Origin: a virus
DNA length: 34,462 bases
Virus genome (UHGV): UHGV-1637875
Strand: one strand, 5' to 3'
Shown in pieces: positions 10,251-24,027 of the stretch. The notes beneath the pieces are model-generated. The model was given only the letters and a program-made list of their open reading frames with translations, made no database searches and was not told where the DNA came from. The stretch's first letter is position 1, and each line of letters starts with the position of its first letter. The position numbers and the translations under genes were made by a program.

Positions 10251-10520
10251 ATGGCTAAAAAAGAAATGGTTGAATTTGATGAAGCTATCCATGGCGAAGA
10301 CTTGGCTAAATTTATTAAAGAAGCATCTGACCATAAACTGAAAATTTCCGGTTATAATGAACTGATTAAAGATATTCGAATTCGTGCCAAAGATGAACTT
10401 GGCGTTGATGGTAAGATGTTTAATCGTCTATTAGCTTTGTATCATAAAGATAACCGTGATGTGTTTGAAGCTGAAACTGAAGAGGTAGTTGAACTTTATG
10501 ACACAGTTTTCTCTAAATGA
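10251..10520 (+). CDS. dsbA: Double-stranded DNA-binding protein DsbA
   Basis: 89 aa, MAKKEMVEFDEAIHGEDLAKFIKEASDHKLKISGYNELIKD..., in the position between rnh and gene 33. Confidence 0.85.
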   Translation: MAKKEMVEFDEAIHGEDLAKFIKEASDHKLKISGYNELIKDIRIRAKDELGVDGKMFNRLLALYHKDNRDVFEAETEEVVELYDTVFSK

Positions 10521-10836
10521 TATTCGTCCGGTCGATGAGACCGGTCTTTCAGAAAAAGAACTTTCAATTAAGAAAGAAAAGGATGAAATAGCAAAGCTTC
10601 TTGACCGCCAAGAAAATGGATTTATTATTGAAAAAATGGTAGAAGAGTTTGGAATGAGTTATCTCGAAGCTACAACAGCATTCTTAGAAGAAAATTCTAT
10701 TCCTGAAACTCAATTTGCTAAATTTATTCCTTCGGGTATAATTGAAAAAATTCAGTCAGAAGCTATTGACGAAAATCTTTTACGTCCTTCTGTTGTTCGT
10801 TGTGAAAAAACTAATACATTAGATTTTCTACTATGA
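10498..10836 (+). CDS. 33: Late-transcription accessory protein gp33
   Basis: 112 aa from the ATG at 10498 (MTQFSLNDIRPVDETGLSEKELSIKKEKDE...); overlaps the dsbA 3' end; ends in an ATGA overlap with gene 59. Confidence 0.85.
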   Translation: MTQFSLNDIRPVDETGLSEKELSIKKEKDEIAKLLDRQENGFIIEKMVEEFGMSYLEATTAFLEENSIPETQFAKFIPSGIIEKIQSEAIDENLLRPSVVRCEKTNTLDFLL

Positions 10837-11486
10837 TTAAACTCCGCATGCCTGCTGGTGGTGAAAGATACATTGATGGTAAATCAGTTTATAAATTATA
10901 CTTAATGATAAAACAACATATGAATGGAAAGTATGATGTTATTAAGTATAATTGGTGCATGCGGGTGTCTGATGCCGCTTATCAAAAGCGAAGGGATAAG
11001 TATTTTTTCCAGAAGTTATCAGAAAAATATAAATTAAAGGAACTTGCTTTAATCTTTATAAGCAATTTGGTTGCCAACCAAGATGCTTGGATTGGTGACA
11101 TCTCTGACGCTGATGCACTTGTGTTTTATCGTGAATATATCGGACGCTTAAAGCAAATTAAATTTAAGTTTGAAGAAGATATTCGCAACATTTATTATTT
11201 TAGTAAAAAAGTTGAAGTTTCTGCTTTTAAAGAAATCTTTGAGTATAATCCAAAAGTTCAATCAAGTTATATTTTTAAACTACTTCAATCAAATATAATT
11301 TCGTTTGAGACGTTTATCTTGCTTGATTCGTTTTTAAATATAATTGATAAACATGATGAACAGACTGATAATTTAGTCTGGAATAATTATTCTATAAAGT
11401 TAAAGGCTTATAGAAAAATTTTAAATATTGATTCACAGAAAGCTAAAAGTGTTTTCATTGAAACTGTGAAATCTTGTAAGTATTGA
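10833..11486 (+). CDS. 59: Helicase loader gp59
   Basis: 217 aa, the same length as T4 gp59; MIKLRMPAGGERYIDGKSVYKLYLMIKQHMNGKYD... Confidence 0.85.
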   Translation: MIKLRMPAGGERYIDGKSVYKLYLMIKQHMNGKYDVIKYNWCMRVSDAAYQKRRDKYFFQKLSEKYKLKELALIFISNLVANQDAWIGDISDADALVFYREYIGRLKQIKFKFEEDIRNIYYFSKKVEVSAFKEIFEYNPKVQSSYIFKLLQSNIISFETFILLDSFLNIIDKHDEQTDNLVWNNYSIKLKAYRKILNIDSQKAKSVFIETVKSCKY

Positions 11487-11487
11487 T

Positions 11488-12117
11488 ATGAATATAGTAT
11501 ATTGGTTTACATTTGAAGACCGTGTCAAAAATAAGACTCCGCCATACTACTATATCGGTAGTAAATTAAATTGCTCATTTGAGAACGGAATAATATATGA
11601 CTCTTCCAGAAAGGAATACTGGAGCTCATGTAAACAAAAAAGATTTTTGAATGCGCTAATGCTTCAAAAACCGAGCGTTAAAATAATTCAAATTGATGAT
11701 GACTTGGATGTTATTGAAGCAGAACGAAAATACCAACTTGAAGTAAATGCCAGAGATAATCCAGACTATTTTAATCTGGTATATGCTGGTGGTGGATTTG
11801 GTGTGAGTGGTGAAACTCATCCAGCCAAAGACCCGGAAGTTAGAGAGCATATGAGATTGGCTAATTATATGAACCGTGACGATTTTAGACCTTGGAAAAC
11901 ATCACGAGCTAATATAGAGTCTTGGAAATTATCTCATATTGCTTACGAGAATTATGTGTTATTATCCTCTAATCTGTACGGTAAAACTCCTGGATGGCGA
12001 AGAGTTAAAGGTAATATAAATATAACTGATACAACTGCTAAATCGATGGTAAAGTATTTCAACTCAGGTTGGATACCTCTCGAAGACCCAGAGTATTGCG
12101 AATTATGCCAGCTATGA
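11488..12117 (+). CDS. segG: Putative GIY-YIG-family homing endonuclease (SegG-like, between genes 59 and 32)
   Basis: 209-aa ORF with N-terminal IVYWFTF...YYYIGSK resembling a degenerate GIY...YIG module. It occupies the slot between genes 59 and 32 where T4 carries segG. Motif match is imperfect, so confidence is moderate. Confidence 0.5.
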   Translation: MNIVYWFTFEDRVKNKTPPYYYIGSKLNCSFENGIIYDSSRKEYWSSCKQKRFLNALMLQKPSVKIIQIDDDLDVIEAERKYQLEVNARDNPDYFNLVYAGGGFGVSGETHPAKDPEVREHMRLANYMNRDDFRPWKTSRANIESWKLSHIAYENYVLLSSNLYGKTPGWRRVKGNINITDTTAKSMVKYFNSGWIPLEDPEYCELCQL

Positions 12118-12166
12118 GGTAAAGTGTCATAGCACCAACTGTTAATTAAATTAAAAAGGAAATAAA
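12111..12166 (+). promoter_or_regulatory. Gene 32 translational operator (5' pseudoknot plus AU-rich unstructured leader)
   Basis: gctatga...tcatagc complementary stem (12111-12133) followed by ttaattaaattaaaaaggaaataaa ending at the gene 32 ATG; matches the known gp32 autoregulatory leader. Confidence 0.6.
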
Positions 12167-13072
12167 ATGTTTAAACGTAAATCTACTGCTGAACTTGCTG
12201 CACAAATGGCTAAACTGAATGGCAATAAAGGTTTTTCTTCTGAAGATAAAGGCGAGTGGAAACTGAAACTCGATAATGCGGGTAACGGTCAAGCAGTAAT
12301 TCGTTTTCTTCCGTCTAAAAATGATGAACAAGCACCATTCGCAATTCTTGTAAATCACGGTTTCAAGAAAAATGGTAAATGGTATATTGAAACATGTTCA
12401 TCTACCCACGGTGATTACGATTCTTGTCCAGTATGTCAATACATCAGTAAAAATGATCTGTACAACACTGACAATAAAGAGTACAGTCTTGTTAAACGTA
12501 AAACTTCTTACTGGGCTAATATTCTTGTTGTAAAAGACCCAGCTGCTCCAGAAAATGAAGGTAAAGTATTTAAATATCGTTTCGGTAAGAAAATCTGGGA
12601 TAAAATCAACGCGATGATTGCGGTTGATGTTGAAATGGGTGAAACTCCAGTTGATGTAACTTGTCCGTGGGAAGGTGCTAACTTTGTACTGAAAGTTAAA
12701 CAAGTTTCTGGTTTTAGTAACTACGACGAATCTAAATTCCTGAATCAATCTGCGATTCCAAACATTGATGATGAATCTTTCCAGAAAGAACTGTTCGAAC
12801 AAATGGTTGACCTTTCTGAAATGACTTCTAAAGATAAATTCAAATCGTTTGAAGAACTGAGCACTAAGTTCAGTCAAGTTATGGGAACTGCTGCTATGGG
12901 TGGTGCCGCAGCAACTGCCGCTAAGAAAGCTGATAAAGTTGCTGATGATTTGGATGCATTCAATGTTGATGACTTCAATACAAAAACTGAAGATGATTTT
13001 ATGAGCTCAAGCTCTGGCAGTTCATCTAGTGCTGATGACACGGACCTGGATGACCTTTTGAATGACCTTTAA
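12167..13072 (+). CDS. 32: Single-stranded DNA-binding protein gp32
   Basis: 301 aa, [49 protein letters not shown]..., acidic C-terminal tail ([22 protein letters not shown]); essentially T4 gp32. Confidence 0.95.
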
Positions 13073-13094
13073 TAGACTATATTACTAATTAATT

Positions 13095-13119
13095 GGGGAC
13101 CCTAGAGGTCCCCTTTTTT
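13095..13119 (+). terminator. Rho-independent terminator after gene 32
   Basis: ggggacc-ctaga-ggtcccc followed by tttttt. Confidence 0.8.
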
Positions 13120-13145
13120 ATTTCAAAAATTTTTTCACAAAACGG

Positions 13146-13174
13146 TTTACAACCAAAGCATACTGTGGTACTAT
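13146..13174 (+). promoter_or_regulatory. Early promoter
   Basis: gTTTACA, 17-bp spacer, TACTAT preceded by gtg; upstream of the 75-aa ORF. Confidence 0.5.
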
Positions 13175-13217
13175 ACAACTATCGGCAATACTGCTGATGA
13201 TTAAAGAGGAAAATAAT

Positions 13218-13445
13218 ATGGCTAAAATTGATATTGATGTTGTTGATTTTGAATATATTGAAGAAATTATTCGTAATCGTTATCCTGAACTTAGTATCAT
13301 AAGCGCACTAAATGATCCTAATTGTAATGTTTCAGTTGTTATTGAAGGTCCTTTAAATCGTCTTAAACAGTTTATGGTTAATGAATACTGCGACGGTATG
13401 GATGCTGAAGATATAGAATTTTACACAGGATTTATTGAACAGTAA
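13218..13445 (+). CDS. Small early hypothetical protein (frd-32 accessory region); paralog of the 13928-14143 ORF
   Basis: 75 aa from the ATG at 13218 with an AGAGGA ribosome-binding site; [26 protein letters not shown]...NEYCDGM.... Confidence 0.7.
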
Positions 13446-13451
13446 TTATCA

Positions 13452-13469
13452 AGGGGCTATCAAGCCCCT
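13452..13469 (+). promoter_or_regulatory. Intercistronic GC-rich hairpin
   Basis: aggggct-atca-agcccct, a perfect 7-bp stem with no U-run, between two small ORFs. Confidence 0.4.
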
Positions 13470-13489
13470 ATTAAAATGAGGAAAACGCA

Positions 13490-13870
13490 ATGTATACTGG
13501 TAAAAAGTATGAACTTATTCCAAGACTTATTGATACATTTATTAATTATAGCCCGTGTTCTAATTCATCAATAGTTAAAGCCATTCGAGATAATGGCGGA
13601 TGGTTTGAAGTTAAAGAAGTTTCCGTCGCTAATGGATATAAAGCAGTAAAACACATTGAATGCGCAAATGGAAAGCATTTTTACCTCAAAGATAGACTTT
13701 TAGAAATTTGCGAAGACGAATTTCATTGTTTTCGTGAGTATAAAGAACCGACTTCTGAAAAAGATGAAGTCAAAGACCCGGTTTCTGGCGTAACAAAAAT
13801 TCACTGCATTGTAGACGAAAACAATGTAGATGAAATCATTGAACTTTTGCGAAAAACTTTCAAAAAGTAG
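13490..13870 (+). CDS. Hypothetical early protein
   Basis: 126-aa ORF with GAGG 8 nt upstream of the ATG; cysteine-rich (several CxxC-like pairs), no family recognised. Confidence 0.65.
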   Translation: MYTGKKYELIPRLIDTFINYSPCSNSSIVKAIRDNGGWFEVKEVSVANGYKAVKHIECANGKHFYLKDRLLEICEDEFHCFREYKEPTSEKDEVKDPVSGVTKIHCIVDENNVDEIIELLRKTFKK

Positions 13871-13904
13871 TTTACAGAAGGGTAGTAGTGTGATACTATT
13901 ACCC
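13871..13904 (+). promoter_or_regulatory. Early promoter with -10 box nested in a stem-loop (PeSL-type)
   Basis: gTTTACA (13870-13876), 17-bp spacer, TACTAT (13894-13899); dyad gggtagtag (13880-13888) / ctattaccc (13896-13904). Confidence 0.6.
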
Positions 13905-13927
13905 TATCAATTACATGGGGAAAATAA

Positions 13928-14143
13928 ATGGCTAAGGTTAATATTGATATTGTTGATTTTGAATACACTTACGAAGTTATCCGCAATCGTTATCCTTCTT
14001 TGAGTATGGCTTACATTAAAGATACCCAATTCTTTAGTATTCAAATTGAAGTCCAAGGTCCTCTTGAAGACCTTATCAGTTTTATGACCAATGAGTATTG
14101 TGATGGCATGTATCCTGAAGATGCTAAATTTATATGGGCTTAA
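13928..14143 (+). CDS. Small early hypothetical protein; paralog of the 13218-13445 ORF
   Basis: 71 aa, [26 protein letters not shown]...NEYCDGM..., about half the residues shared with the 75-aa ORF. Confidence 0.7.
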
Positions 14144-14157
14144 TTCAAAAATAAATG

Positions 14158-14190
14158 TTTACAACAGGCTATGGTAATGATACTATAGCC
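14158..14190 (+). promoter_or_regulatory. Early promoter with -10 box nested in a stem-loop (PeSL-type)
   Basis: gTTTACA (14157-14163), 17-bp spacer, TACTAT (14181-14186); dyad ggctatggta (14167-14176) / tactatagcc (14181-14190). Confidence 0.6.
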
Positions 14191-14212
14191 TTATCAACTT
14201 GAGGAGAATAAA

Positions 14213-14455
14213 ATGAGATTACAACGCCATAGCATCAAAGATTCGGAAGTTAGAGGTAAATGGTATTTTAATATCATCGGTAAAGATTCTGAACTTGTTG
14301 AAAAAGCTGAACATCTTTTACGTGACATGGGATGGGAAGATGAATGTGATGGATGTCCTCTTTATGAAGACGGAGAAAGCGCAGGATTCTGGATTTACCA
14401 TTCTGACGTCGAGCAGTTTAAAGCTGATTGGAAAATTGTGAAAAAGTCTGTTTAA
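14213..14455 (+). CDS. Hypothetical early protein
   Basis: 80-aa ORF with a GAGGAG ribosome-binding site. Confidence 0.65.
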   Translation: MRLQRHSIKDSEVRGKWYFNIIGKDSELVEKAEHLLRDMGWEDECDGCPLYEDGESAGFWIYHSDVEQFKADWKIVKKSV

Positions 14456-14465
14456 GGAAAATAAT

Positions 14466-15292
<827 letters not shown>

Positions 15293-15312
15293 AATAACGC
15301 GTGGCGGAAAAT

Positions 15313-15660
15313 ATGAACTTTAATTATTACCCTATTCTATTAGAAAAAGACGCGAAACAACCAAAATGGCAGGGTCCTCAGTTTATTAAAGGCGTCTATC
15401 AATTAGTAGTTCCTAAAGACAAGATTTATAGTAGTTGTTTCACTGAATCCGCTTGCAGTATTTTCGGTAATAGTTCTCCGTATTGGAATTTTGATATAAA
15501 ACTGGATAGAAATATCGATATTTGGTTGAAAGCCATGGATATTGGCAATATTACGTTTGATGAGAATAATTATCATATTATTGGTCGCTTTTCTAAACGC
15601 GGTAAAGAATTATATTTCACTCCTGAAATCGAAAGAAAATTTGATGCTAAACCGTATTGA
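15313..15660 (+). CDS. Hypothetical protein encoded by an insertion between frd and td
   Basis: 115-aa ORF from the ATG at 15313 (MNFNYYPILLEKDAKQPKWQGPQF...); no motif recognised; weak ribosome-binding site. T4 has no gene here because frd and td overlap. Confidence 0.55.
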   Translation: MNFNYYPILLEKDAKQPKWQGPQFIKGVYQLVVPKDKIYSSCFTESACSIFGNSSPYWNFDIKLDRNIDIWLKAMDIGNITFDENNYHIIGRFSKRGKELYFTPEIERKFDAKPY

Positions 15661-15705
15661 TTATTTAGCTTCATAAAATGTATTATAATTTATATAAGGT
15701 ACTAA

Positions 15706-16566
15706 ATGAAACAATACCAAGATTTAATTAAAGACATTTTTGAAAATGGCTATGAAACCGATGATCGAACAGGCACAGGAACAATTGCTTTGTTCGGTAC
15801 TAAATTACGCTGGGATTTAAGTAAAGGTTTTCCTGCAGTAACAACTAAAAAGCTCGCCTGGAAAGCTTGCATTGCTGAGCTACTTTGGTTTTTATCAGGA
15901 AGCACAAATGTCAATGATTTACGATTAATTCAGCATGATTCATTAATTCAAGGCAAAACAGTCTGGGATGAAAATTACGAAAATCAAGCAAAAGATTTAG
16001 GATACCACATCGGTGAACTTGGTCCAATTTATGGAAAACAATGGCGTGATTTTGGCGGTGTAGACCAAATTGTAGAAGTTATTGATCGTATTAAAAAACT
16101 GCCGAATGATAGGCGACAAATTGTTTCTGCGTGGAATCCAGCTGAACTTAAATATATGGCATTACCGCCTTGTCATATGTTCTATCAGTTTAATGTGCGT
16201 AATGGCTATTTGGATTTGCAGTGGTATCAACGATCAGTAGATGTTTTTCTTGGTCTTCCATTTAATATTGCATCATATGCTGCGTTAGTTCATATTGTAG
16301 CTAAGATGTGTAATCTTATTCCTGGAGATTTGATATTTTCTGGCGGTAATACTCATATCTATATGAATCACGTAGAACAATGTAAAGAAATTTTACGTCG
16401 TGAACCTAAAGAGCTTTGTGAACTGGTAATAGGCGGATTGCCTTATAAATTCCGTTATCTTTCTACTAAAGAACAATTGGAATACATTCTTAAACTCAGG
16501 CCTAAAGATTTCGTTCTCAAAGATTATCAGTCCCACGGTGTCTTGAAAGGAAAAATGGCGGTATAA
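15706..16566 (+). CDS. td: Thymidylate synthase, intronless
   Basis: 286 aa, MKQYQDLIKDIFENGYETDDRTGTGTIALFG...; uninterrupted ORF, so the group I intron and its endonuclease ORF seen in T4 td are absent. Confidence 0.95.
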   Translation: MKQYQDLIKDIFENGYETDDRTGTGTIALFGTKLRWDLSKGFPAVTTKKLAWKACIAELLWFLSGSTNVNDLRLIQHDSLIQGKTVWDENYENQAKDLGYHIGELGPIYGKQWRDFGGVDQIVEVIDRIKKLPNDRRQIVSAWNPAELKYMALPPCHMFYQFNVRNGYLDLQWYQRSVDVFLGLPFNIASYAALVHIVAKMCNLIPGDLIFSGGNTHIYMNHVEQCKEILRREPKELCELVIGGLPYKFRYLSTKEQLEYILKLRPKDFVLKDYQSHGVLKGKMAV

Positions 16567-16589
16567 TTTTAATTTAATTGCGAGGATAT

Positions 16590-16853
16590 ATGATTTTACG
16601 ATTTAAAGATACTTCTGGTGTCGTTCTTTTTACACTTCCTAATCCAAGCGAGTTAGAAGTTCCAGGACCAAATCAGCCTATTATCATTTATGGCAAAAAA
16701 TATTATACTCATAAAATGACTCGTGAGTATTTTGATAATAAAATTTCTACAGTTAAAACTTCTTCAGATTGTTACTATGATATTACTGTTTTAACGGAAA
16801 AACAATATGACGAATTATCACCGCGCGGGCCGTCTATGCCAGGTAGTGAATAA
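16590..16853 (+). CDS. Hypothetical protein (td-nrdA accessory region)
   Basis: 87 aa from the ATG at 16590 (GAGGA 3 nt upstream; the track start at 16578 is a TTG). Overlaps the next ORF by 47 nt in a different frame. Confidence 0.5.
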
Positions 16854-17133
16854 ATATAAATCCGACTTTGATGTTAATATTCACCGTGGTACATTTTGGG
16901 GAAATTACGTCGGTAAAGATGCTGGCAGCCGGGAGGCTGCCATTGAATTATTCAAAAAAGATTTTATACGTCGAATTAAATCCGGAGAAATAACTAAAGC
17001 ACATTTAGAGCCTTTACGTGGAATGAGGCTAGGATGCACATGTAAACCAAAGCCGTGTCATGGTGATATAATAGCTCATATAGTTAACCGATTGTTTAAA
17101 GACGATTTTCAAGTTGAGGACTTATGCAATTAA
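16807..17133 (+). CDS. Hypothetical protein, cysteine/histidine-containing ([11 protein letters not shown])
   Basis: 108-aa ORF; weak ribosome-binding site; 3' end overlaps the nrdA start. Confidence 0.5.
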
Positions 17134-19388
17134 TTAATGTTATCAAAAGTAGTGGTGTTTCTCAAAGCTTTGACCCGCAAAAAATTATTAAAGTTTTATC
17201 TTGGGCAGCTGAAGGAACATCTGTAGATCCTTATGAATTATATGAAAATATTAAATCATATCTCCGTGATGGAATGACCACTGATGACATTCAAACCATT
17301 GTAATTAAGGCTGCTGCGAATTCTATTTCAGTTGAAGAGCCTGATTATCAATATGTAGCTGCGCGCTGTTTAATGTTTGCTCTTCGTAAGCATGTTTATG
17401 GACAATATGAACCACGTTCATTTATTGACCATATTTCTTACTGCGTAAATGAAGGTAAATATGACCCTGAATTGTTGTCAAAATATTCAGCAGAAGAAAT
17501 TACATTTTTAGAATCAAAAATTAAGCACGAGCGGGATATGGAATTTACTTATTCCGGGGCGATGCAATTAAAAGAAAAATATCTAGTTAAAGATAAAACC
17601 ACCGGTCAAATTTATGAAACTCCACAGTTTGCATTTATGACTATTGGAATGGCATTGCATCAAGATGAACCTGTTGATAGATTAAAACATGTTATCCGTT
17701 TTTATGAAGCGGTATCTACTCGACAGATTTCATTACCAACTCCTATTATGGCTGGTTGCCGTACTCCAACTCGGCAGTTTAGTTCATGCGTTGTTATTGA
17801 GGCAGGTGATTCATTAAAGTCTATCAATAAGGCTTCCGCTTCAATTGTTGAATATATCTCTAAACGCGCTGGAATTGGTATTAACGTTGGTATGATTCGT
17901 GCTGAAGGTTCTAAGATTGGCATGGGTGAAGTACGCCATACTGGTGTTATTCCTTTTTGGAAACATTTTCAGACTGCTGTTAAATCATGCTCACAGGGTG
18001 GAATTCGTGGCGGCGCTGCTACTGCTTATTATCCTATTTGGCATTTGGAAGTTGAAAATCTTCTTGTTTTGAAAAATAACAAAGGCGTAGAAGAAAACCG
18101 CATTCGTCATATGGATTATGGTGTTCAACTGAATGATTTGATGATGGAACGTTTTGGAAAGAACGATTACATTACTTTGTTCAGTCCCCATGAAATGGGC
18201 GGAGAGCTTTATTATTCTTATTTTAAAGACCAAGACCGTTTCCGTGAATTATACGAAGCAGCAGAAAAAGACCCTAATATTCGTAAAAAGCGTATTAAAG
18301 CCCGTGAACTATTTGAATTGCTCATGACTGAACGCTCAGGAACAGCAAGGATTTATGTACAGTTCATTGATAATACGAATAACTATACTCCGTTTATTCG
18401 TGAAAAGGCACCTATTCGTCAGAGTAACTTGTGCTGTGAAATTGCTATTCCAACAAATGATGTGAATAGTCCTGATGCTGAAATTGGATTGTGTACTCTC
18501 TCTGCATTCGTACTGGATAATTTTGACTGGCAAGACCAAGATAAAATTAATGAATTGGCAGAAGTCCAGGTTCGTGCTCTTGATAATCTTTTGGATTACC
18601 AAGGATATCCAGTTCCTGAAGCAGAAAAAGCTAAAAAGCGTCGTAACCTCGGTGTAGGTGTTACTAACTATGCAGCTTGGTTGGCAAGTAACTTTGCTTC
18701 TTATGAAGATGCTAACGATTTAACACATGAACTATTTGAGAGATTACAGTATGGACTCATTAAAGCATCCATTAAACTCGCCAAAGAAAAAGGACCTTGT
18801 GAATATTATTCAGACACTCGTTGGTCTCGAGGCGAATTACCTATCGACTGGTACAATAAAAAGATTGACCAAATCGCAGCTCCAAAATACGTTTGTGACT
18901 GGTCGTCGCTGCGGGAAGACCTTAAGCTCTTTGGCATCCGTAATAGCACATTATCAGCACTTATGCCATGTGAGTCATCTTCCCAAGTTTCTAACAGTAC
19001 AAACGGTATCGAGCCTCCACGTGGACCAGTCTCTGTTAAAGAATCAAAAGAGGGCTCCTTTAATCAAGTCGTGCCCAATATTGAGCATAACATAGACCTC
19101 TATGATTATACATGGAAATTAGCTAAGAAAGGTAATAAACCTTATCTTACGCAGGTAGCTATTATGCTGAAATGGGTATGTCAATCAGCTTCAGCGAATA
19201 CATATTATGACCCACAGATTTTTCCAAAAGGAAAGGTTCCAATGTCAATAATGATTGATGATATGCTATACGGATGGTATTATGGCATTAAAAATTTCTA
19301 TTATCATAATACCCGCGATGGTTCTGGTACTGATGATTATGAAATAGAAACTCCAAAAGCTGAAGATTGCGCAGCGTGTAAATTGTAA
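17124..19388 (+). CDS. nrdA: Aerobic ribonucleotide reductase large subunit
   Basis: 754 aa, the same length as T4 NrdA; N-terminal ATP-cone and a conserved NLCCEI active-site region; GAGGA ribosome-binding site. Confidence 0.95.
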   Translation: MQLINVIKSSGVSQSFDPQKIIKVLSWAAEGTSVDPYELYENIKSYLRDGMTTDDIQTIVIKAAANSISVEEPDYQYVAARCLMFALRKHVYGQYEPRSFIDHISYCVNEGKYDPELLSKYSAEEITFLESKIKHERDMEFTYSGAMQLKEKYLVKDKTTGQIYETPQFAFMTIGMALHQDEPVDRLKHVIRFYEAVSTRQISLPTPIMAGCRTPTRQFSSCVVIEAGDSLKSINKASASIVEYISKRAGIGINVGMIRAEGSKIGMGEVRHTGVIPFWKHFQTAVKSCSQGGIRGGAATAYYPIWHLEVENLLVLKNNKGVEENRIRHMDYGVQLNDLMMERFGKNDYITLFSPHEMGGELYYSYFKDQDRFRELYEAAEKDPNIRKKRIKARELFELLMTERSGTARIYVQFIDNTNNYTPFIREKAPIRQSNLCCEIAIPTNDVNSPDAEIGLCTLSAFVLDNFDWQDQDKINELAEVQVRALDNLLDYQGYPVPEAEKAKKRRNLGVGVTNYAAWLASNFASYEDANDLTHELFERLQYGLIKASIKLAKEKGPCEYYSDTRWSRGELPIDWYNKKIDQIAAPKYVCDWSSLREDLKLFGIRNSTLSALMPCESSSQVSNSTNGIEPPRGPVSVKESKEGSFNQVVPNIEHNIDLYDYTWKLAKKGNKPYLTQVAIMLKWVCQSASANTYYDPQIFPKGKVPMSIMIDDMLYGWYYGIKNFYYHNTRDGSGTDDYEIETPKAEDCAACKL

Positions 19389-20029
19389 TGAATTATCAAA
19401 AAATCTATAATGACCTAATTTCCCGAGCTCAGGCTCGGGAACCTTTATCCGAATATAAAGAGACTCATCATATAATCCCTAGATGTATGGGAGGTTCTGA
19501 TGATAAAGAAAATTTAGTTGAATTAACAGGTAGAGAGCATTTTATAGCTCATTGGCTTTTATGCAAAATATATGACACCCCAGGATTAAAGAAAGCTTTT
19601 GGTTTAATGTGCTTGACTGGTAAAAATCGCTCATATAAAATTTCTTCTCAACTATACGAATTAGGTAGACGACGTTTATCTGAAGCTGCTGTAGGACGTG
19701 AAGTTTCTATAGAAACCAGGGAAAAGATAAGTAGAGCTCTTAAAGGAAGGAAATTTACCAAAGAGCATTTAGCTCGCATGAGAAAACCTAAAACCGAAGA
19801 AGCTAAAAAGAATATAGCTGCTGCTAAAGTCGGCGTGCTTAATCCGATGTATGGTACAATCTCTCCGACAAGAGATGTTCCTCATACTAAAGAAACTCGT
19901 GATTTGATTTCTTTGAGAACTAAGCAAAGTATAGAGTATCCGCCTTGTCCGCATTGTGGCAAGAAAGTTAATAAAGGCAATGCTCTAAGATGGCATTATG
20001 ATAAATGTAAATTTAAGGATTCTAAATGA
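19388..20029 (+). CDS. mobE: HNH-family homing endonuclease (MobE-like) inserted between nrdA and nrdB
   Basis: 213 aa; HNH motif HHIIPRCMGGSDDKENLVELTGREHFIAHW; C-terminal CPHCGK zinc-finger-like motif; start overlaps the nrdA stop (TAATG) and stop overlaps the nrdB start (ATGA). Confidence 0.65.
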   Translation: MNYQKIYNDLISRAQAREPLSEYKETHHIIPRCMGGSDDKENLVELTGREHFIAHWLLCKIYDTPGLKKAFGLMCLTGKNRSYKISSQLYELGRRRLSEAAVGREVSIETREKISRALKGRKFTKEHLARMRKPKTEEAKKNIAAAKVGVLNPMYGTISPTRDVPHTKETRDLISLRTKQSIEYPPCPHCGKKVNKGNALRWHYDKCKFKDSK

Positions 20030-21204
20030 GTACAGTTTTTAATACATCCCCTGTTAATATTTTGACTGAGCCGATGTTTTTTGGTTCTGGATTGGGTTTA
20101 GCTCGATATGATATTCAACGGCATAGAGTATTTGAAGAACTTATTGAGAAATCTTTATCATTTTTCTGGCGTCCTGAAGAAGTAAACTTAATGATGGATG
20201 CTGCACAGTTTAATAAGCTTCCTCAATATCAGCAGAATATTTTTACTAATAATCTGAAGTATCAATCACTTCTAGATAGCATTCAGGGTCGTGCACCGTC
20301 TGCTGTACTTATGTCATTGATTTCAGACCCAAGCCTTGATACATGGGTTGCTACATGGACTTTTAGTGAAACCATTCACAGTCGTTCATACACTCATATT
20401 ATGCGAAATCTTTATACTGATCCGTCAAAGGTATTTGATGAGATTGTATTAGATAAAGCTATCATGAAACGTGCTGAATCTATTGGTCGTTATTATGATG
20501 ATGTTCTGGACAAGACACGTATTTGGGAAAACGCCAAAGAAAACTTTAGTTATTTTGCTGAAAATGAATATGATTTAGAAGCATATTCAAACAGTCTCAC
20601 TCATTTGGAAGAATGTAAACGAGACCTGATGAAGTCGCTTTATCTCTGTCTGCACGTTATCAATGCTCTGGAAGCTATTCGTTTTTATGTATCCTTTGCA
20701 TGTACTTTCAACTTCCATAAGAACATGGAAATCATGGAAGGTAATGCGAAGATTATGAAATTTATTGCACGTGATGAGCAGCTTCATCTTAAAGGTACAC
20801 AATATATTATTCGTCAACTTCAATCCGGTACTGATGGTGATGAATGGGTTAAAATTGCCAAAGAGTGTGAACAAGAAGCAGTTGATATTTTCATGGAAGT
20901 TAACCGCCAAGAAAAAGATTGGGCAGTTCATTTATTTAAAGATGGCGATGTTCCTGGATTAAATACAAATAGCATGTGGAGCTTTATTGATTACTTAACT
21001 GTATCTCGTATGAAACAGTGTGGTCTTCCATGCCCGATTACCGATGCTCCGGTTAAACATCCATATCCTTGGATTCGTGAATACCTTAATTCTGATAATG
21101 TTCAATCCGCGCCGCAAGAAGTAGAACTGTCATCTTATCTTGTTGCACAGATTGATAATGATGTTGATGATAAAGTTATGATGAGTTTAAAAAAATATTT
21201 TTAA
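20026..21204 (+). CDS. nrdB: Aerobic ribonucleotide reductase small subunit, intronless
   Basis: 392-aa uninterrupted ORF, MSTVFNTSPVNILTEPMFFGSGLGLARYDIQRH...; no intron. Confidence 0.95.
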   Translation: MSTVFNTSPVNILTEPMFFGSGLGLARYDIQRHRVFEELIEKSLSFFWRPEEVNLMMDAAQFNKLPQYQQNIFTNNLKYQSLLDSIQGRAPSAVLMSLISDPSLDTWVATWTFSETIHSRSYTHIMRNLYTDPSKVFDEIVLDKAIMKRAESIGRYYDDVLDKTRIWENAKENFSYFAENEYDLEAYSNSLTHLEECKRDLMKSLYLCLHVINALEAIRFYVSFACTFNFHKNMEIMEGNAKIMKFIARDEQLHLKGTQYIIRQLQSGTDGDEWVKIAKECEQEAVDIFMEVNRQEKDWAVHLFKDGDVPGLNTNSMWSFIDYLTVSRMKQCGLPCPITDAPVKHPYPWIREYLNSDNVQSAPQEVELSSYLVAQIDNDVDDKVMMSLKKYF

Positions 21205-21231
21205 GGAGTGGGCCGCAAGGCCCATTTTATT

Positions 21232-21234
<3 letters not shown>
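21204..21234 (+). promoter_or_regulatory. Split translation-initiation region for denA: Shine-Dalgarno, hairpin, AUG
   Basis: AGGAG (21204-21208), then hairpin tgggcc-gcaa-ggccca (21209-21224, 6-bp stem with GNRA loop), then 7 nt, then ATG at 21232. Linear SD-to-AUG distance is 23 nt; it becomes 7 nt if the hairpin forms. It may also attenuate read-through from nrdB. Confidence 0.45.
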
Positions 21235-22819
<1,585 letters not shown>

Positions 22820-22823
22820 GCTG

Positions 22824-22852
22824 TTTACAAGTCCCTCGTGTTGTGTTATAGT
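22824..22852 (+). promoter_or_regulatory. Early promoter for alc
   Basis: gTTTACA (22823-22829), 17-bp spacer, TATAGT (22847-22852); imperfect dyad agtccctc / gaggact flanks it. Confidence 0.5.
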
Positions 22853-22880
22853 AATCTTACTGACATAACATGAGGACTTT

Positions 22881-23387
22881 ATGATGGATTTGCAGCTTAT
22901 TACTACTGAAATGGTCGTTGAAGCATACGGTGATACTACAGATGGGATTTCTGTATTCAAAGGAAATCGTCGAGTTGGATATATCACCGATCTTAAGAAA
23001 GATTTAGCTAAGCAAGTCAAGCGGAAAACGACCATTAAAGAATATCGAAATCGTCGTCTTGAGCAAGCCCGTGATATGCTTCCTGATGCGGTTGAGGAGA
23101 TGAAAGTCTTTTTAGAAAATCAACTCGCTAAGTATGATTGTGAAGTGTTTATTAATCAGACTCAACCTAATGTTCATATCAATAGCTGCAAATGCTATAT
23201 CATCGTTAATCCTTTGACAGGAAAGCATCGTCTTGGAATTAGTAATCCAAATCGTAGCGCATCGGATATGGCAGAAGATGTTGCGGCGTGCTTTAAAATT
23301 TCTAAATCTCCGGCTGAACATCATATTTTAATTAACGGTCTTTCTCAAGACGATATTATAGAGGTTATTAAAACTTTATGCAATTAA
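22881..23387 (+). CDS. alc: Alc (blocks transcription elongation on cytosine-containing host DNA)
   Basis: About 167 aa, (M)MDLQLITTEMVVEAYGDTTDGISVFKGNRRVGYI...; tandem ATGs at 22881 and 22884, the second having the better spacing from GAGGA. Confidence 0.85.
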   Translation: MMDLQLITTEMVVEAYGDTTDGISVFKGNRRVGYITDLKKDLAKQVKRKTTIKEYRNRRLEQARDMLPDAVEEMKVFLENQLAKYDCEVFINQTQPNVHINSCKCYIIVNPLTGKHRLGISNPNRSASDMAEDVAACFKISKSPAEHHILINGLSQDDIIEVIKTLCN

Positions 23388-23731
23388 GTAATACGACAGC
23401 AGGTTTGCTATTACTTGTAATAGCAATTGGCGGAACATCTATTATTTTAAAAAATAAGGTAGAAAGATTAGAAACGTCTGTTGTAGAAATTACAAAAACG
23501 GCCAATGAAAATGCCTTAGCATTAAATAATTTGCGAATTCAGTATAATTATATTGATGCGATGAATAATAAAAATCGTGAGGCGATTGCTGCTATTGAGC
23601 GTGAAAATGAAAAACTGCGCAAAGATGCAAAGAAGGCGGATGTGGTGGCTCGTAAGCCAGGATTGGTTGAAAAACAAATCAACAACTCCTTCAACAAGTT
23701 CGCAGAAGACATCCAGGACCTTTCTAAATGA
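23378..23731 (+). CDS. pseT.3: Inner-membrane spanin component (Rz-like)
   Basis: 117 aa; N-terminal transmembrane helix (TAGLLLLVIAIGGTSIIL) followed by a charged, probably coiled-coil periplasmic region; directly followed by a lipoprotein gene. Confidence 0.75.
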   Translation: MQLSNTTAGLLLLVIAIGGTSIILKNKVERLETSVVEITKTANENALALNNLRIQYNYIDAMNNKNREAIAAIERENEKLRKDAKKADVVARKPGLVEKQINNSFNKFAEDIQDLSK

Positions 23732-24027
23732 TTAAATTATCTGCAGTAATATTATCTATTGGTCTTCTAGTTGGTTGTTCGACAAAGCCTCTAGAAGTAA
23801 AGAAAGAAACAGTTCATCCTAATTGGCCTGTGCAAATAAAGTCATATGACGAAGCTAAACTATCTTGGCAAGTTAAAGTTATTGATGGTAAAGCTTGGGT
23901 AGGTATGCCATTTGAAGATTCTCAGGAATTTCGTATTTGGCTTAATGATGTAAAACGATATGTACATGACCAGAAAACTATGATATGTTATTATCGTCAA
24001 GAGCTAAAAGAGGATAAATGTAAATGA
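23728..24027 (+). CDS. pseT.2: Outer-membrane lipoprotein spanin component (Rz1-like)
   Basis: 99 aa; signal peptide with lipobox LVGC (MIKLSAVILSIGLLVGCSTKP); overlaps the upstream spanin gene by 4 nt. Confidence 0.75.
   Translation: MIKLSAVILSIGLLVGCSTKPLEVKKETVHPNWPVQIKSYDEAKLSWQVKVIDGKAWVGMPFEDSQEFRIWLNDVKRYVHDQKTMICYYRQELKEDKCK

Follow-up and report, generated by a model that had tools for sequence, protein, structure and literature searches.

The window, the whole stretch of 34,462 nucleotides of virus genome UHGV-1637875 that was analysed, is a segment of a Tequatrovirus genome in T4 gene order and contains the block for replication and nucleotide metabolism that is standard in a T4-like coliphage. 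Within this block lie two free-standing homing endonuclease genes and intron-free alleles of td and nrdB. The genes concerned are the following:

10833-11486, + strand: gene 59 (helicase loader), the 5' neighbour of segG; Pfam T4_Gp59_N and T4_Gp59_C (E = 1e-53 and 5e-52), phrog_269.
11488-12117, + strand: segG, free-standing GIY-YIG homing endonuclease gene, 209 aa; 99% identity to T4 SegG, flanked by genes 59 and 32.
12167-13072, + strand: gene 32 (ssDNA-binding protein), the known target gene of SegG (Table 1 of PMC2988022); Pfam gp32 (E = 1.5e-66).
15706-16566, + strand: td, intron-free, 286 aa, with an empty insertion site at 16254/16255; Pfam Thymidylat_synt over its full length (E = 2.5e-95).
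17124-19388, + strand: nrdA, with a stop codon that overlaps the start of mobE (TAATGA in the sequence); Pfam ribonucleotide reductase (RNR) large-subunit domains.
19388-20029, + strand: mobE, T6/LZ7 allele, free-standing HNH homing (nicking) endonuclease gene, 213 aa; recognised by Pfam, identity to T6 and locus.
20026-21204, + strand: nrdB, intron-free, 392 aa, with an empty insertion site at 20701/20702; Pfam Ribonuc_red_sm and alignment to the T4 exons.

Both endonuclease ORFs match PHROG homing-endonuclease families (E = 1.9e-131 and 6.5e-67), and their proteins are 99 and 98% identical to named T4 and T6 genes, so that a chance observation can be dismissed. The original prediction had placed an ORF at the segG position between genes 59 and 32, an HNH ORF with overlapping start and stop codons at the mobE position between nrdA and nrdB, and td and nrdB genes devoid of the T4 group I introns; all of this was borne out at the stated coordinates.

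Judged by its sequence and its flanks, the 209-aa ORF is segG itself, the free-standing ortholog of T4 segG (formerly ORF 32.1). It begins one base past the gene 59 stop codon, with the same one-base spacer as in T4. The protein differs from T4 SegG by one substitution (G41R) and one missing leucine (209 versus 210 aa). The gene 32 leader is 6 nt shorter than that of T4, and a T4-like 5' end of gene 32 accompanies segG in the window. In T4, SegG makes a site-specific double-strand cut in gene 32 of phages lacking segG and is preferentially inherited, as reported by Liu et al. (2003), cited in PMC2988022 and PMC2330249. T4 segG also harbours the promoters of gene 32 and a portion of its operator (PMC2988022).

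The profile search proposed as confirmation of both folds gave a divided answer. MobE passes the Pfam cut-off for HNH (PF01844; 24.4 bits versus 21.4), whereas SegG matched no Pfam profile up to E = 10, and none of the 25 members of its family matched the GIY-YIG profile. The experimentally active T4 SegG, being 99% identical, should likewise miss this profile, which suggests that the Pfam GIY-YIG test is insensitive for the Seg subgroup. Comparisons of SegG with the PDB, by phmmer and with the family profile, returned chance matches only. The N-terminal domain nevertheless has the alpha/beta fold of GIY-YIG nucleases, with a weak Foldseek match (E = 0.94). Among 25 homologues, V4-Y5-W6, Y22-I23-G24-S25, E79 and N96 show little or no variation, and the position of G41R is variable, with arginine also in one homologue. 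When the family was compared with I-TevI by hhalign, E79 and N96 were paired with E75 and N90 (E = 0.13, suggestive and not significant); an invariant arginine equivalent to I-TevI R27 was sought among the 25 homologues, and none could be assigned with confidence. The I-TevI catalytic domain (PDB 1LN0) shares 15% identity with SegG and has 10-11 residues between the two motif tyrosines, as opposed to 16 in SegG. In addition, I-TevI is intron-encoded, while SegG is free-standing and without a Pfam match.

By protein identity and locus, the 213-aa HNH ORF is mobE itself, in its T6/LZ7 allele. The T6 and LZ7 records (MH550421.1, AY262134.2, DQ178119.1) are annotated as mobE and encode a protein of the same length; 209 of the 213 residues (98%) are identical to T6 MobE, leaving four amino-acid differences. 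In these phages, mobE is positioned as in the window, overlaps nrdA and nrdB in the same way and adjoins an intron-free nrdB. However, T6 lacks segG and carries the td intron, and the window is the opposite at both loci. The ATG of mobE and the TAA of nrdA have one base in common, and the mobE TGA overlaps the nrdB ATG (ATGA). Occupation of the mobE site by another endonuclease, for example Hef, was ruled out by sequence, since the protein has 98% identity to T6 MobE and both of its ends are common to T4 MobE. Its C-terminal DNA-binding part matches Pfam NUMOD3 (PF07460; 34.5 bits versus a cut-off of 20.4), and phmmer comparison with the PDB gave weak HNH-motif matches only. Three features lie inside the gene:

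19420-19441, + strand: terminator-like hairpin internal to mobE, with a 9-bp stem and a 4-nt loop; identical to T4 in alignment.
19553-19778, + strand: central module of mobE specific to this allele (residues ~56-130), in place of a different T4 module that is 19 aa longer.
19835-19860, + strand: candidate MotA-type middle promoter for nrdB in the 3' part of mobE (TGCTTA box, then TACAAT).

T4 MobE (232 aa), the experimentally studied allele, is 71% identical overall to the window protein. The two alleles occupy the same locus and have in common the gene overlaps and the internal hairpin. Their N-terminal HNH regions (residues 1-55) and C-terminal ~85 residues are almost the same; the HNH motif region of the window protein (HHIIPRCMGGSDDKENLVEL-x3-EH) is that of T4 MobE save for A48G. 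Their central modules differ: that of the window has one NUMOD3 repeat fewer, and blastn aligned none of its 226 nt with T4, while 36 phage records, T6 and LZ7 among them, contain this module at 96.5% identity or above. The nrdB nick-region sequence linked to T4 mobE also differs from that of the window. In T4, moreover, an nrdB intron lies downstream and is mobilised in trans by MobE (PMC2790892), whereas the window is without such an intron.

With regard to regulation, the UAAUGA overlap with nrdA and a terminator hairpin 27 nt past the AUG are features of T4 mobE (PMC2988022, PMC2790892) that are present in the window. The hairpin, whose function has been demonstrated for T4 (PMC2790892), has a folding energy of -16.7 kcal/mol (z = -3.56). 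A middle promoter for nrdB sits in the 3' region of T4 mobE (PMC2790892), and the TGCTTA/TACAAT candidate, which occurs once in the window and is conserved with T4, probably corresponds to it.

Divergence is unusually low over a short tract around each endonuclease gene. Both tracts stop within the respective target gene, as repair-driven co-conversion predicts:

10389-12408, no strand assigned: low-divergence tract to T4 around segG, from gene 33 into the first ~240 nt of gene 32.
19370-20190, no strand assigned: low-divergence tract with KAW1E185, a phage with T6-type mobE, covering mobE and the first ~165 nt of nrdB.

Divergence in the two tracts, which are centred on the endonuclease genes, is ~0.6%. 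Around segG, differences to T4 rise to 2.5% upstream and 4.5% downstream, with a sharp change at 12409, and the polymorphisms at the 5' end of gene 32 are common to T4 but not to KAW1E185 and T2, which lack segG. From this pattern, 10389-12408 may be read as a conversion tract. The mobE tract contains 5 differences in about 820 nt, and dense differences flank it on both sides.

The second tract includes the segment of nrdB that corresponds to the region where MobE acts:

20139-20181, - strand: homolog of the region of T2 nrdB nicked by MobE (nt 114-131) together with the FFWRPEE block, placed by alignment.

In experiments with the T4 allele, MobE nicked one particular strand of the nrdB of mobE-less phage, at nt 122-126, and codon-42 variants, including AAA, have been reported in mobE-containing phages (PMC2790892). 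The window nrdB is polymorphic in this region, with AAA as codon 42 (20149-20151), and FFWRPEE, the proposed binding block (20161-20181), is identical across all phages compared. Over nt 114-131, the T6-type sequence is GAGAAATCTTTA, that of T4 is GAGCGGCAGATC and that of T2 is GAAAAGCAGTTG. T6-type mobE is associated with its own nrdB 5' haplotype in 36 of 36 carrier records; conversely, this haplotype was found at 96% or more in 38-39 records, including the 36 with T6-type mobE and Aplg8, and the next value is 87.8%.

This linkage is a small, testable lead on allele-specific immunity. T4-type and T6-type mobE may not be interchangeable, as a result of diverged target preference or self-immunity: the T6-type enzyme would have changed its spacing or sequence preference, each allele would attack the nrdB of the other, and the two would compete for the same locus. 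A parallel is offered by I-HmuI and I-HmuII, which compete in Bacillus phages. The swapped central module, 19 aa shorter and one NUMOD3 repeat poorer, points in this direction, as does the finding that each allele accompanies its own sequence at nrdB nt 114-131, with linkage in 36 of the 38-39 records. However, the N-terminal catalytic region, the C-terminal residues and the FFWRPEE block are nearly or fully the same for both alleles, and plain co-conversion with unchanged specificity also predicts the linkage. A functionally distinct T6-type MobE is rather doubtful.

The tracts and the linkage also bear on whether the two genes are still mobile. One or both could be inactive passengers, retained for the regulatory signals of the essential genes downstream. 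Embedded promoters and their role in retention have been described for T4 (PMC2988022, PMC2790892), and both the hairpin and the MotA-like promoter within mobE are conserved in the window. SegG departs from its T4 counterpart at two points, and the nicking work in PMC2790892 concerns T4 MobE, not the T6-type enzyme. However, neither ORF is truncated or interrupted; MobE differs from T4 within its HNH motif region only at A48G, the motif residues of SegG are invariant, and G41R falls at a variable position where one homologue also has arginine. The fresh-looking tracts and the strict association of mobE with its target haplotype likewise favour ongoing mobility, and loss of function in either gene appears quite unlikely.

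Both td and nrdB are continuous ORFs whose exon junctions are base-exact in alignment to T4. Bases 16479-17494 of the T4 sequence L001 (the td intron, 1016 nt) are absent between window positions 16254 and 16255, and T4 bases 21984-22581 (the nrdB intron, 598 nt) between 20701 and 20702. An Rfam scan found no group I introns in the window, but in the T4 control it failed to detect either intron; the absence therefore rests on the alignments and not on Rfam. One further feature is relevant to the td site:

16228-16232, + strand: CAACG cleavage motif of td, intact in alignment.

The empty sites could be resistant variants, in which silent changes in td or nrdB protect the phage from I-TevI or I-TevIII. 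Compared with the T4 exons, the td homing-site region has seven silent differences and one amino-acid change, and the nrdB intron site differs from that of T2 at three nearby positions. However, 151 nt around the td site match T2 at 100% identity, and T2 was reportedly the classical td intron recipient when crossed with T4 (Quirk et al., 1989). The cleavage motif is preserved. Moreover, I-TevI is sequence-tolerant (PMC2988022), and resistance of this kind is very unlikely.

The best explanation, in which we have high confidence, is a T4-like block that carries segG and T6-type mobE as homing endonucleases and intron-free alleles of td and nrdB. It draws on what was observed here, namely the gene identities together with their fold and motifs, introns missing to the base, tracts of low divergence and a mobE allele linked to its nrdB haplotype; nuclease activity, target sites, homing and marker exclusion would extend to the window phage by analogy with experiments on T4. 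On this basis, SegG would cut gene 32 of co-infecting phages that lack segG, and repair off segG-bearing genomes would copy segG and adjacent gene 32 sequence into the victim. Similarly, MobE would nick the non-coding strand of nrdB near codon 42 in mobE-less phages, and the ensuing repair would copy mobE together with the 5' portion of nrdB. Both genes would behave as promoterless cassettes transcribed from the upstream gene; translation of mobE is probably coupled to that of nrdA through UAAUGA, and its output would be damped by the internal hairpin. With intron-free td and nrdB alleles, as in most relatives, the phage would be an intron recipient upon co-infection with a carrier of I-TevI or of an intact I-TevIII. 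The role of SegG and MobE in marker exclusion is textbook knowledge (PMC2988022, PMC2790892). As a discovery the locus carries little weight: the positions and regulation of segG and mobE, marker exclusion and the patchy occurrence of the td and nrdB introns have already been described.

The configuration is also less unusual than the original prediction had implied. In the phage collection, intron-free td is the commoner state (274 records with a continuous junction versus 197 with the full intron). Escherichia phage FL08 (PP400785.1) displays the same four states as the window, with segG and T6-type mobE present and td and nrdB intron-free; the two share about 95% nucleotide identity over the region, and each has its own complement of small frd.x ORFs. 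Two known free-standing homing endonuclease genes beside intron-free td and nrdB are thus an ordinary, already known combination, present in public phage genomes. Other combinations of segG, the td intron, mobE and the nrdB intron occur in relatives, and the window is a clean natural illustration of how these four selfish elements assort independently among close relatives. A 119-aa ORF between frd and td was considered as a third mobile element and rejected, as it matches a PHROG of unknown function and bears no nuclease signature. T4 is without this ORF, which is found in T2, T6, KAW1E185, VEc20 and FL08.

On the + strand of the window, the ORF list and profile searches recover the T4 gene order; gp34 lies upstream, on the strand opposite to the replication and nucleotide genes. 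The features are:

5' of gene 59, + strand, rnh, dsbA and 33 (ORF list and profile searches)
10833-11486, + strand, gene 59
11488-12117, + strand, 209-aa ORF (segG)
12167-13072, + strand, gene 32
between gene 32 and frd, + strand, small frd.x ORFs
14711-15292, + strand, frd
between frd and td, + strand, 119-aa ORF
15706-16566, + strand, td
between td and nrdA, + strand, nrdA.2 and nrdA.1
17124-19388, + strand, nrdA
19388-20029, + strand, 213-aa ORF (mobE)
20026-21204, + strand, nrdB
after nrdB, + strand, denA and rnlA

The 10.5-kb region aligns colinearly with T4 and matches more than 1000 phage records, mainly of Tequatrovirus, the best at about 95% identity.

Judged by its sequence, the 209-aa ORF is SegG. 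The original prediction had put a GIY-YIG-like ORF at the segG position between genes 59 and 32, and the annotated T4 segG indeed occupies the same place with 99% identity; the window protein departs from T4 SegG only by G41R and one missing Leu. Copies with at least 95% identity occur in about 141 phage records. Sequence methods gave no significant match to the GIY-YIG fold. In Pfam, at E-values up to 10, SegG of the window had no match and none of 25 homologues had a GIY-YIG match, and PDB searches by sequence and with the SegG family profile gave nothing significant. Profile alignment of the SegG family with I-TevI, the td intron endonuclease, was weak (E 0.13); in it the I-TevI catalytic residues E75 and N90 align with SegG E79 and N96. 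The gene 32 leader (12118-12166, from the segG stop to the gene 32 start) lacks 6 nt of its T4 counterpart, one ATTAA repeat and one A. Both are missing from the A/U-rich operator region, which follows the pseudoknot sequence overlapping the segG 3' end.

The 213-aa ORF is identified in the same way as mobE, in the allele of phages T6 and LZ7. It exceeds the Pfam cut-offs for both HNH and NUMOD3. The predicted overlaps hold: the mobE start codon and the nrdA stop codon have one base in common (TAATGA), and the mobE stop overlaps the nrdB start (ATGA), as described for T4 (PMC2988022). The T4 protein (232 aa) is 71% identical to window MobE, and the two are near-identical at both ends, in the HNH region (residues 1-55) and over the C-terminal ~85 residues; in the centre, the T4 segment is replaced by a shorter one with fewer NUMOD3 repeats. 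This central segment (226 nt, 19553-19778) has counterparts of at least 96.5% identity in 36 phage records, including those of T6 and LZ7, where the gene that carries it is annotated mobE, and T6 MobE (also 213 aa) shares 209/213 residues with the window protein. All mobE features known from T4 are present: besides the overlaps, a stable hairpin (9-bp stem, 4-nt loop, -16.7 kcal/mol, z -3.56) 27 nt after the AUG, the same as the internal hairpin described in T4 mobE (PMC2790892), and, in the conserved 3' part, a MotA-like promoter sequence (19835-19860), from which we infer a candidate nrdB middle promoter.

The td and nrdB genes were predicted to be free of the T4 group I introns, and alignment to T4 demonstrates this with base-exact junctions: 1016 nt of T4 are missing from td between window positions 16254 and 16255, and 598 nt from nrdB between 20701 and 20702, and in both genes the exons run on in frame. 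An Rfam scan of the window also found no group I intron, but is not used as evidence because a T4 control was equally negative; at the gathering threshold the scan misses the T4 td and nrdB introns (T4 locus, 15000-24000), which hold large endonuclease ORF inserts, and therefore cannot call such introns absent. The 151 nt around the td insertion site, with its CAACG cleavage motif intact, are 100% identical to phage T2, the classical td-intron recipient in T4 x T2 crosses. At the nrdB site, three nearby positions differ from T2. The window, T2, KAW1E185 and T4 differ from one another over ~120 nt of nrdB (20502-20625), a stretch 3' of the MobE nick region and 5' of the empty insertion site (20701/20702); identity there is 72-78% (200-nt bins, indels present), as against more than 95% in the flanks.

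Both endonuclease genes lie in low-divergence tracts, read as traces of homing. Over 10389-12408, which spans genes 33 and 59, segG and the 5'-most ~240 nt of gene 32, the window diverges from T4 by about 0.6%; divergence is 2.5% before this tract and 4.5% after it, and the shift at 12409 is abrupt. At the gene 32 5' polymorphisms, including a 3-nt deletion, the window agrees with T4, unlike the segG-less T2 and KAW1E185. Over 19370-20190, only 5 positions differ from KAW1E185, a phage with T6-type mobE, and differences are dense on either side. Within this tract lies nrdB nt 114-131, a polymorphic stretch that surrounds the MobE nick site as mapped in T2 (PMC2790892); it reads GAGAAATCTTTA in the window (codon 42 = AAA), GAGCGGCAGATC in T4 and GAAAAGCAGTTG in T2; AAA is among the codon-42 variants reported in mobE-bearing phages (PMC2790892), and the FFWRPEE block downstream is identical in all phages compared. 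Matches of at least 96% identity to the 150-nt nrdB 5' haplotype come from 38-39 records (the next identity is 87.8%), namely the 36 T6-type mobE records and phage Aplg8. Co-conversion of an endonuclease gene together with its protected target would be expected to give such linkage, which alone does not demonstrate altered specificity. A functional difference between T6-type and T4-type mobE alleles seems improbable. Aplg8 (KT184308.1/NC_054902.1; haplotype identity 97.3%), outside the 36 records with the T6-type centre, may have lost mobE or carry another allele.

Across the phage collection, 197 records have the complete td intron, 274 an uninterrupted td junction and about 118 the nrdB intron.

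Distribution of the four elements (segG; td intron; mobE; nrdB intron)
T2: absent; absent; absent; absent
T4: present; present; T4-type; present
T6: absent; present; T6-type; absent
KAW1E185: absent; absent; T6-type; absent
VEc20, G2540: present; present; T6-type; absent
FL08: present; absent; T6-type; absent
Window: present; absent; T6-type; absent

Among these relatives, each of the four elements varies independently of the others, and the predicted combination of free-standing endonuclease genes with empty intron sites already exists in a public genome, FL08. The observation is confirmed and its interpretation supported; their content is known biology.

Cleavage by SegG and MobE and localized marker exclusion are known from T4 work (PMC2988022, PMC2790892, PMC2330249). 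By analogy, SegG of the window phage would cut both strands of gene 32 when the co-infecting phage has no segG, and MobE would nick nrdB near codon 42, around nt 122-126, on the non-coding strand; the endonuclease gene and flanking markers would then be copied from the window phage during repair, resulting in localized marker exclusion. Both genes would lack promoters of their own and be transcribed from upstream, and gene 32 promoters inside segG and an nrdB promoter inside mobE would disfavour deletion of either. T4 MobE additionally mobilises the defunct nrdB intron in trans; the window phage has no such intron.

Several smaller features were noted in the same region. The frd-td gap is filled by an ORF of ~115-119 aa (15301-15660, +; likely true start ATG 15314), missing in T4, where frd and td overlap (ATGA), and present in T2, T6 (annotated 'RB32ORF229c'), KAW1E185, VEc20 and FL08. 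It hits phrog_1928 (unknown function) but nothing in Pfam, and none of the searches run indicated a nuclease. Immediately 5' of frd, an 81-aa ORF (14466-14711, +; phrog_3183, unknown function) is shared with T2 and T6 ('RB32ORF231c') but not with T4. Two frd.3-like paralogues (13197-13445 and 13928-14143, +) both hit phrog_1764 in its C-terminal part; the second, with ~75% DNA identity to T4 frd.3, replaces the T4 sequence there. The nrdA.1 gene (16807-17133, +) matches Pfam DUF4326 (E 1.3e-21) and overlaps the nrdA start by 10 nt. The td stop/nrdA.2 start region is a further mosaic boundary: over 16401-16600 (td 3' end and td-nrdA.2 junction), identity dips to 84% with T4 and 56% with KAW1E185, and the two genes overlap in some relatives and are apart in others.
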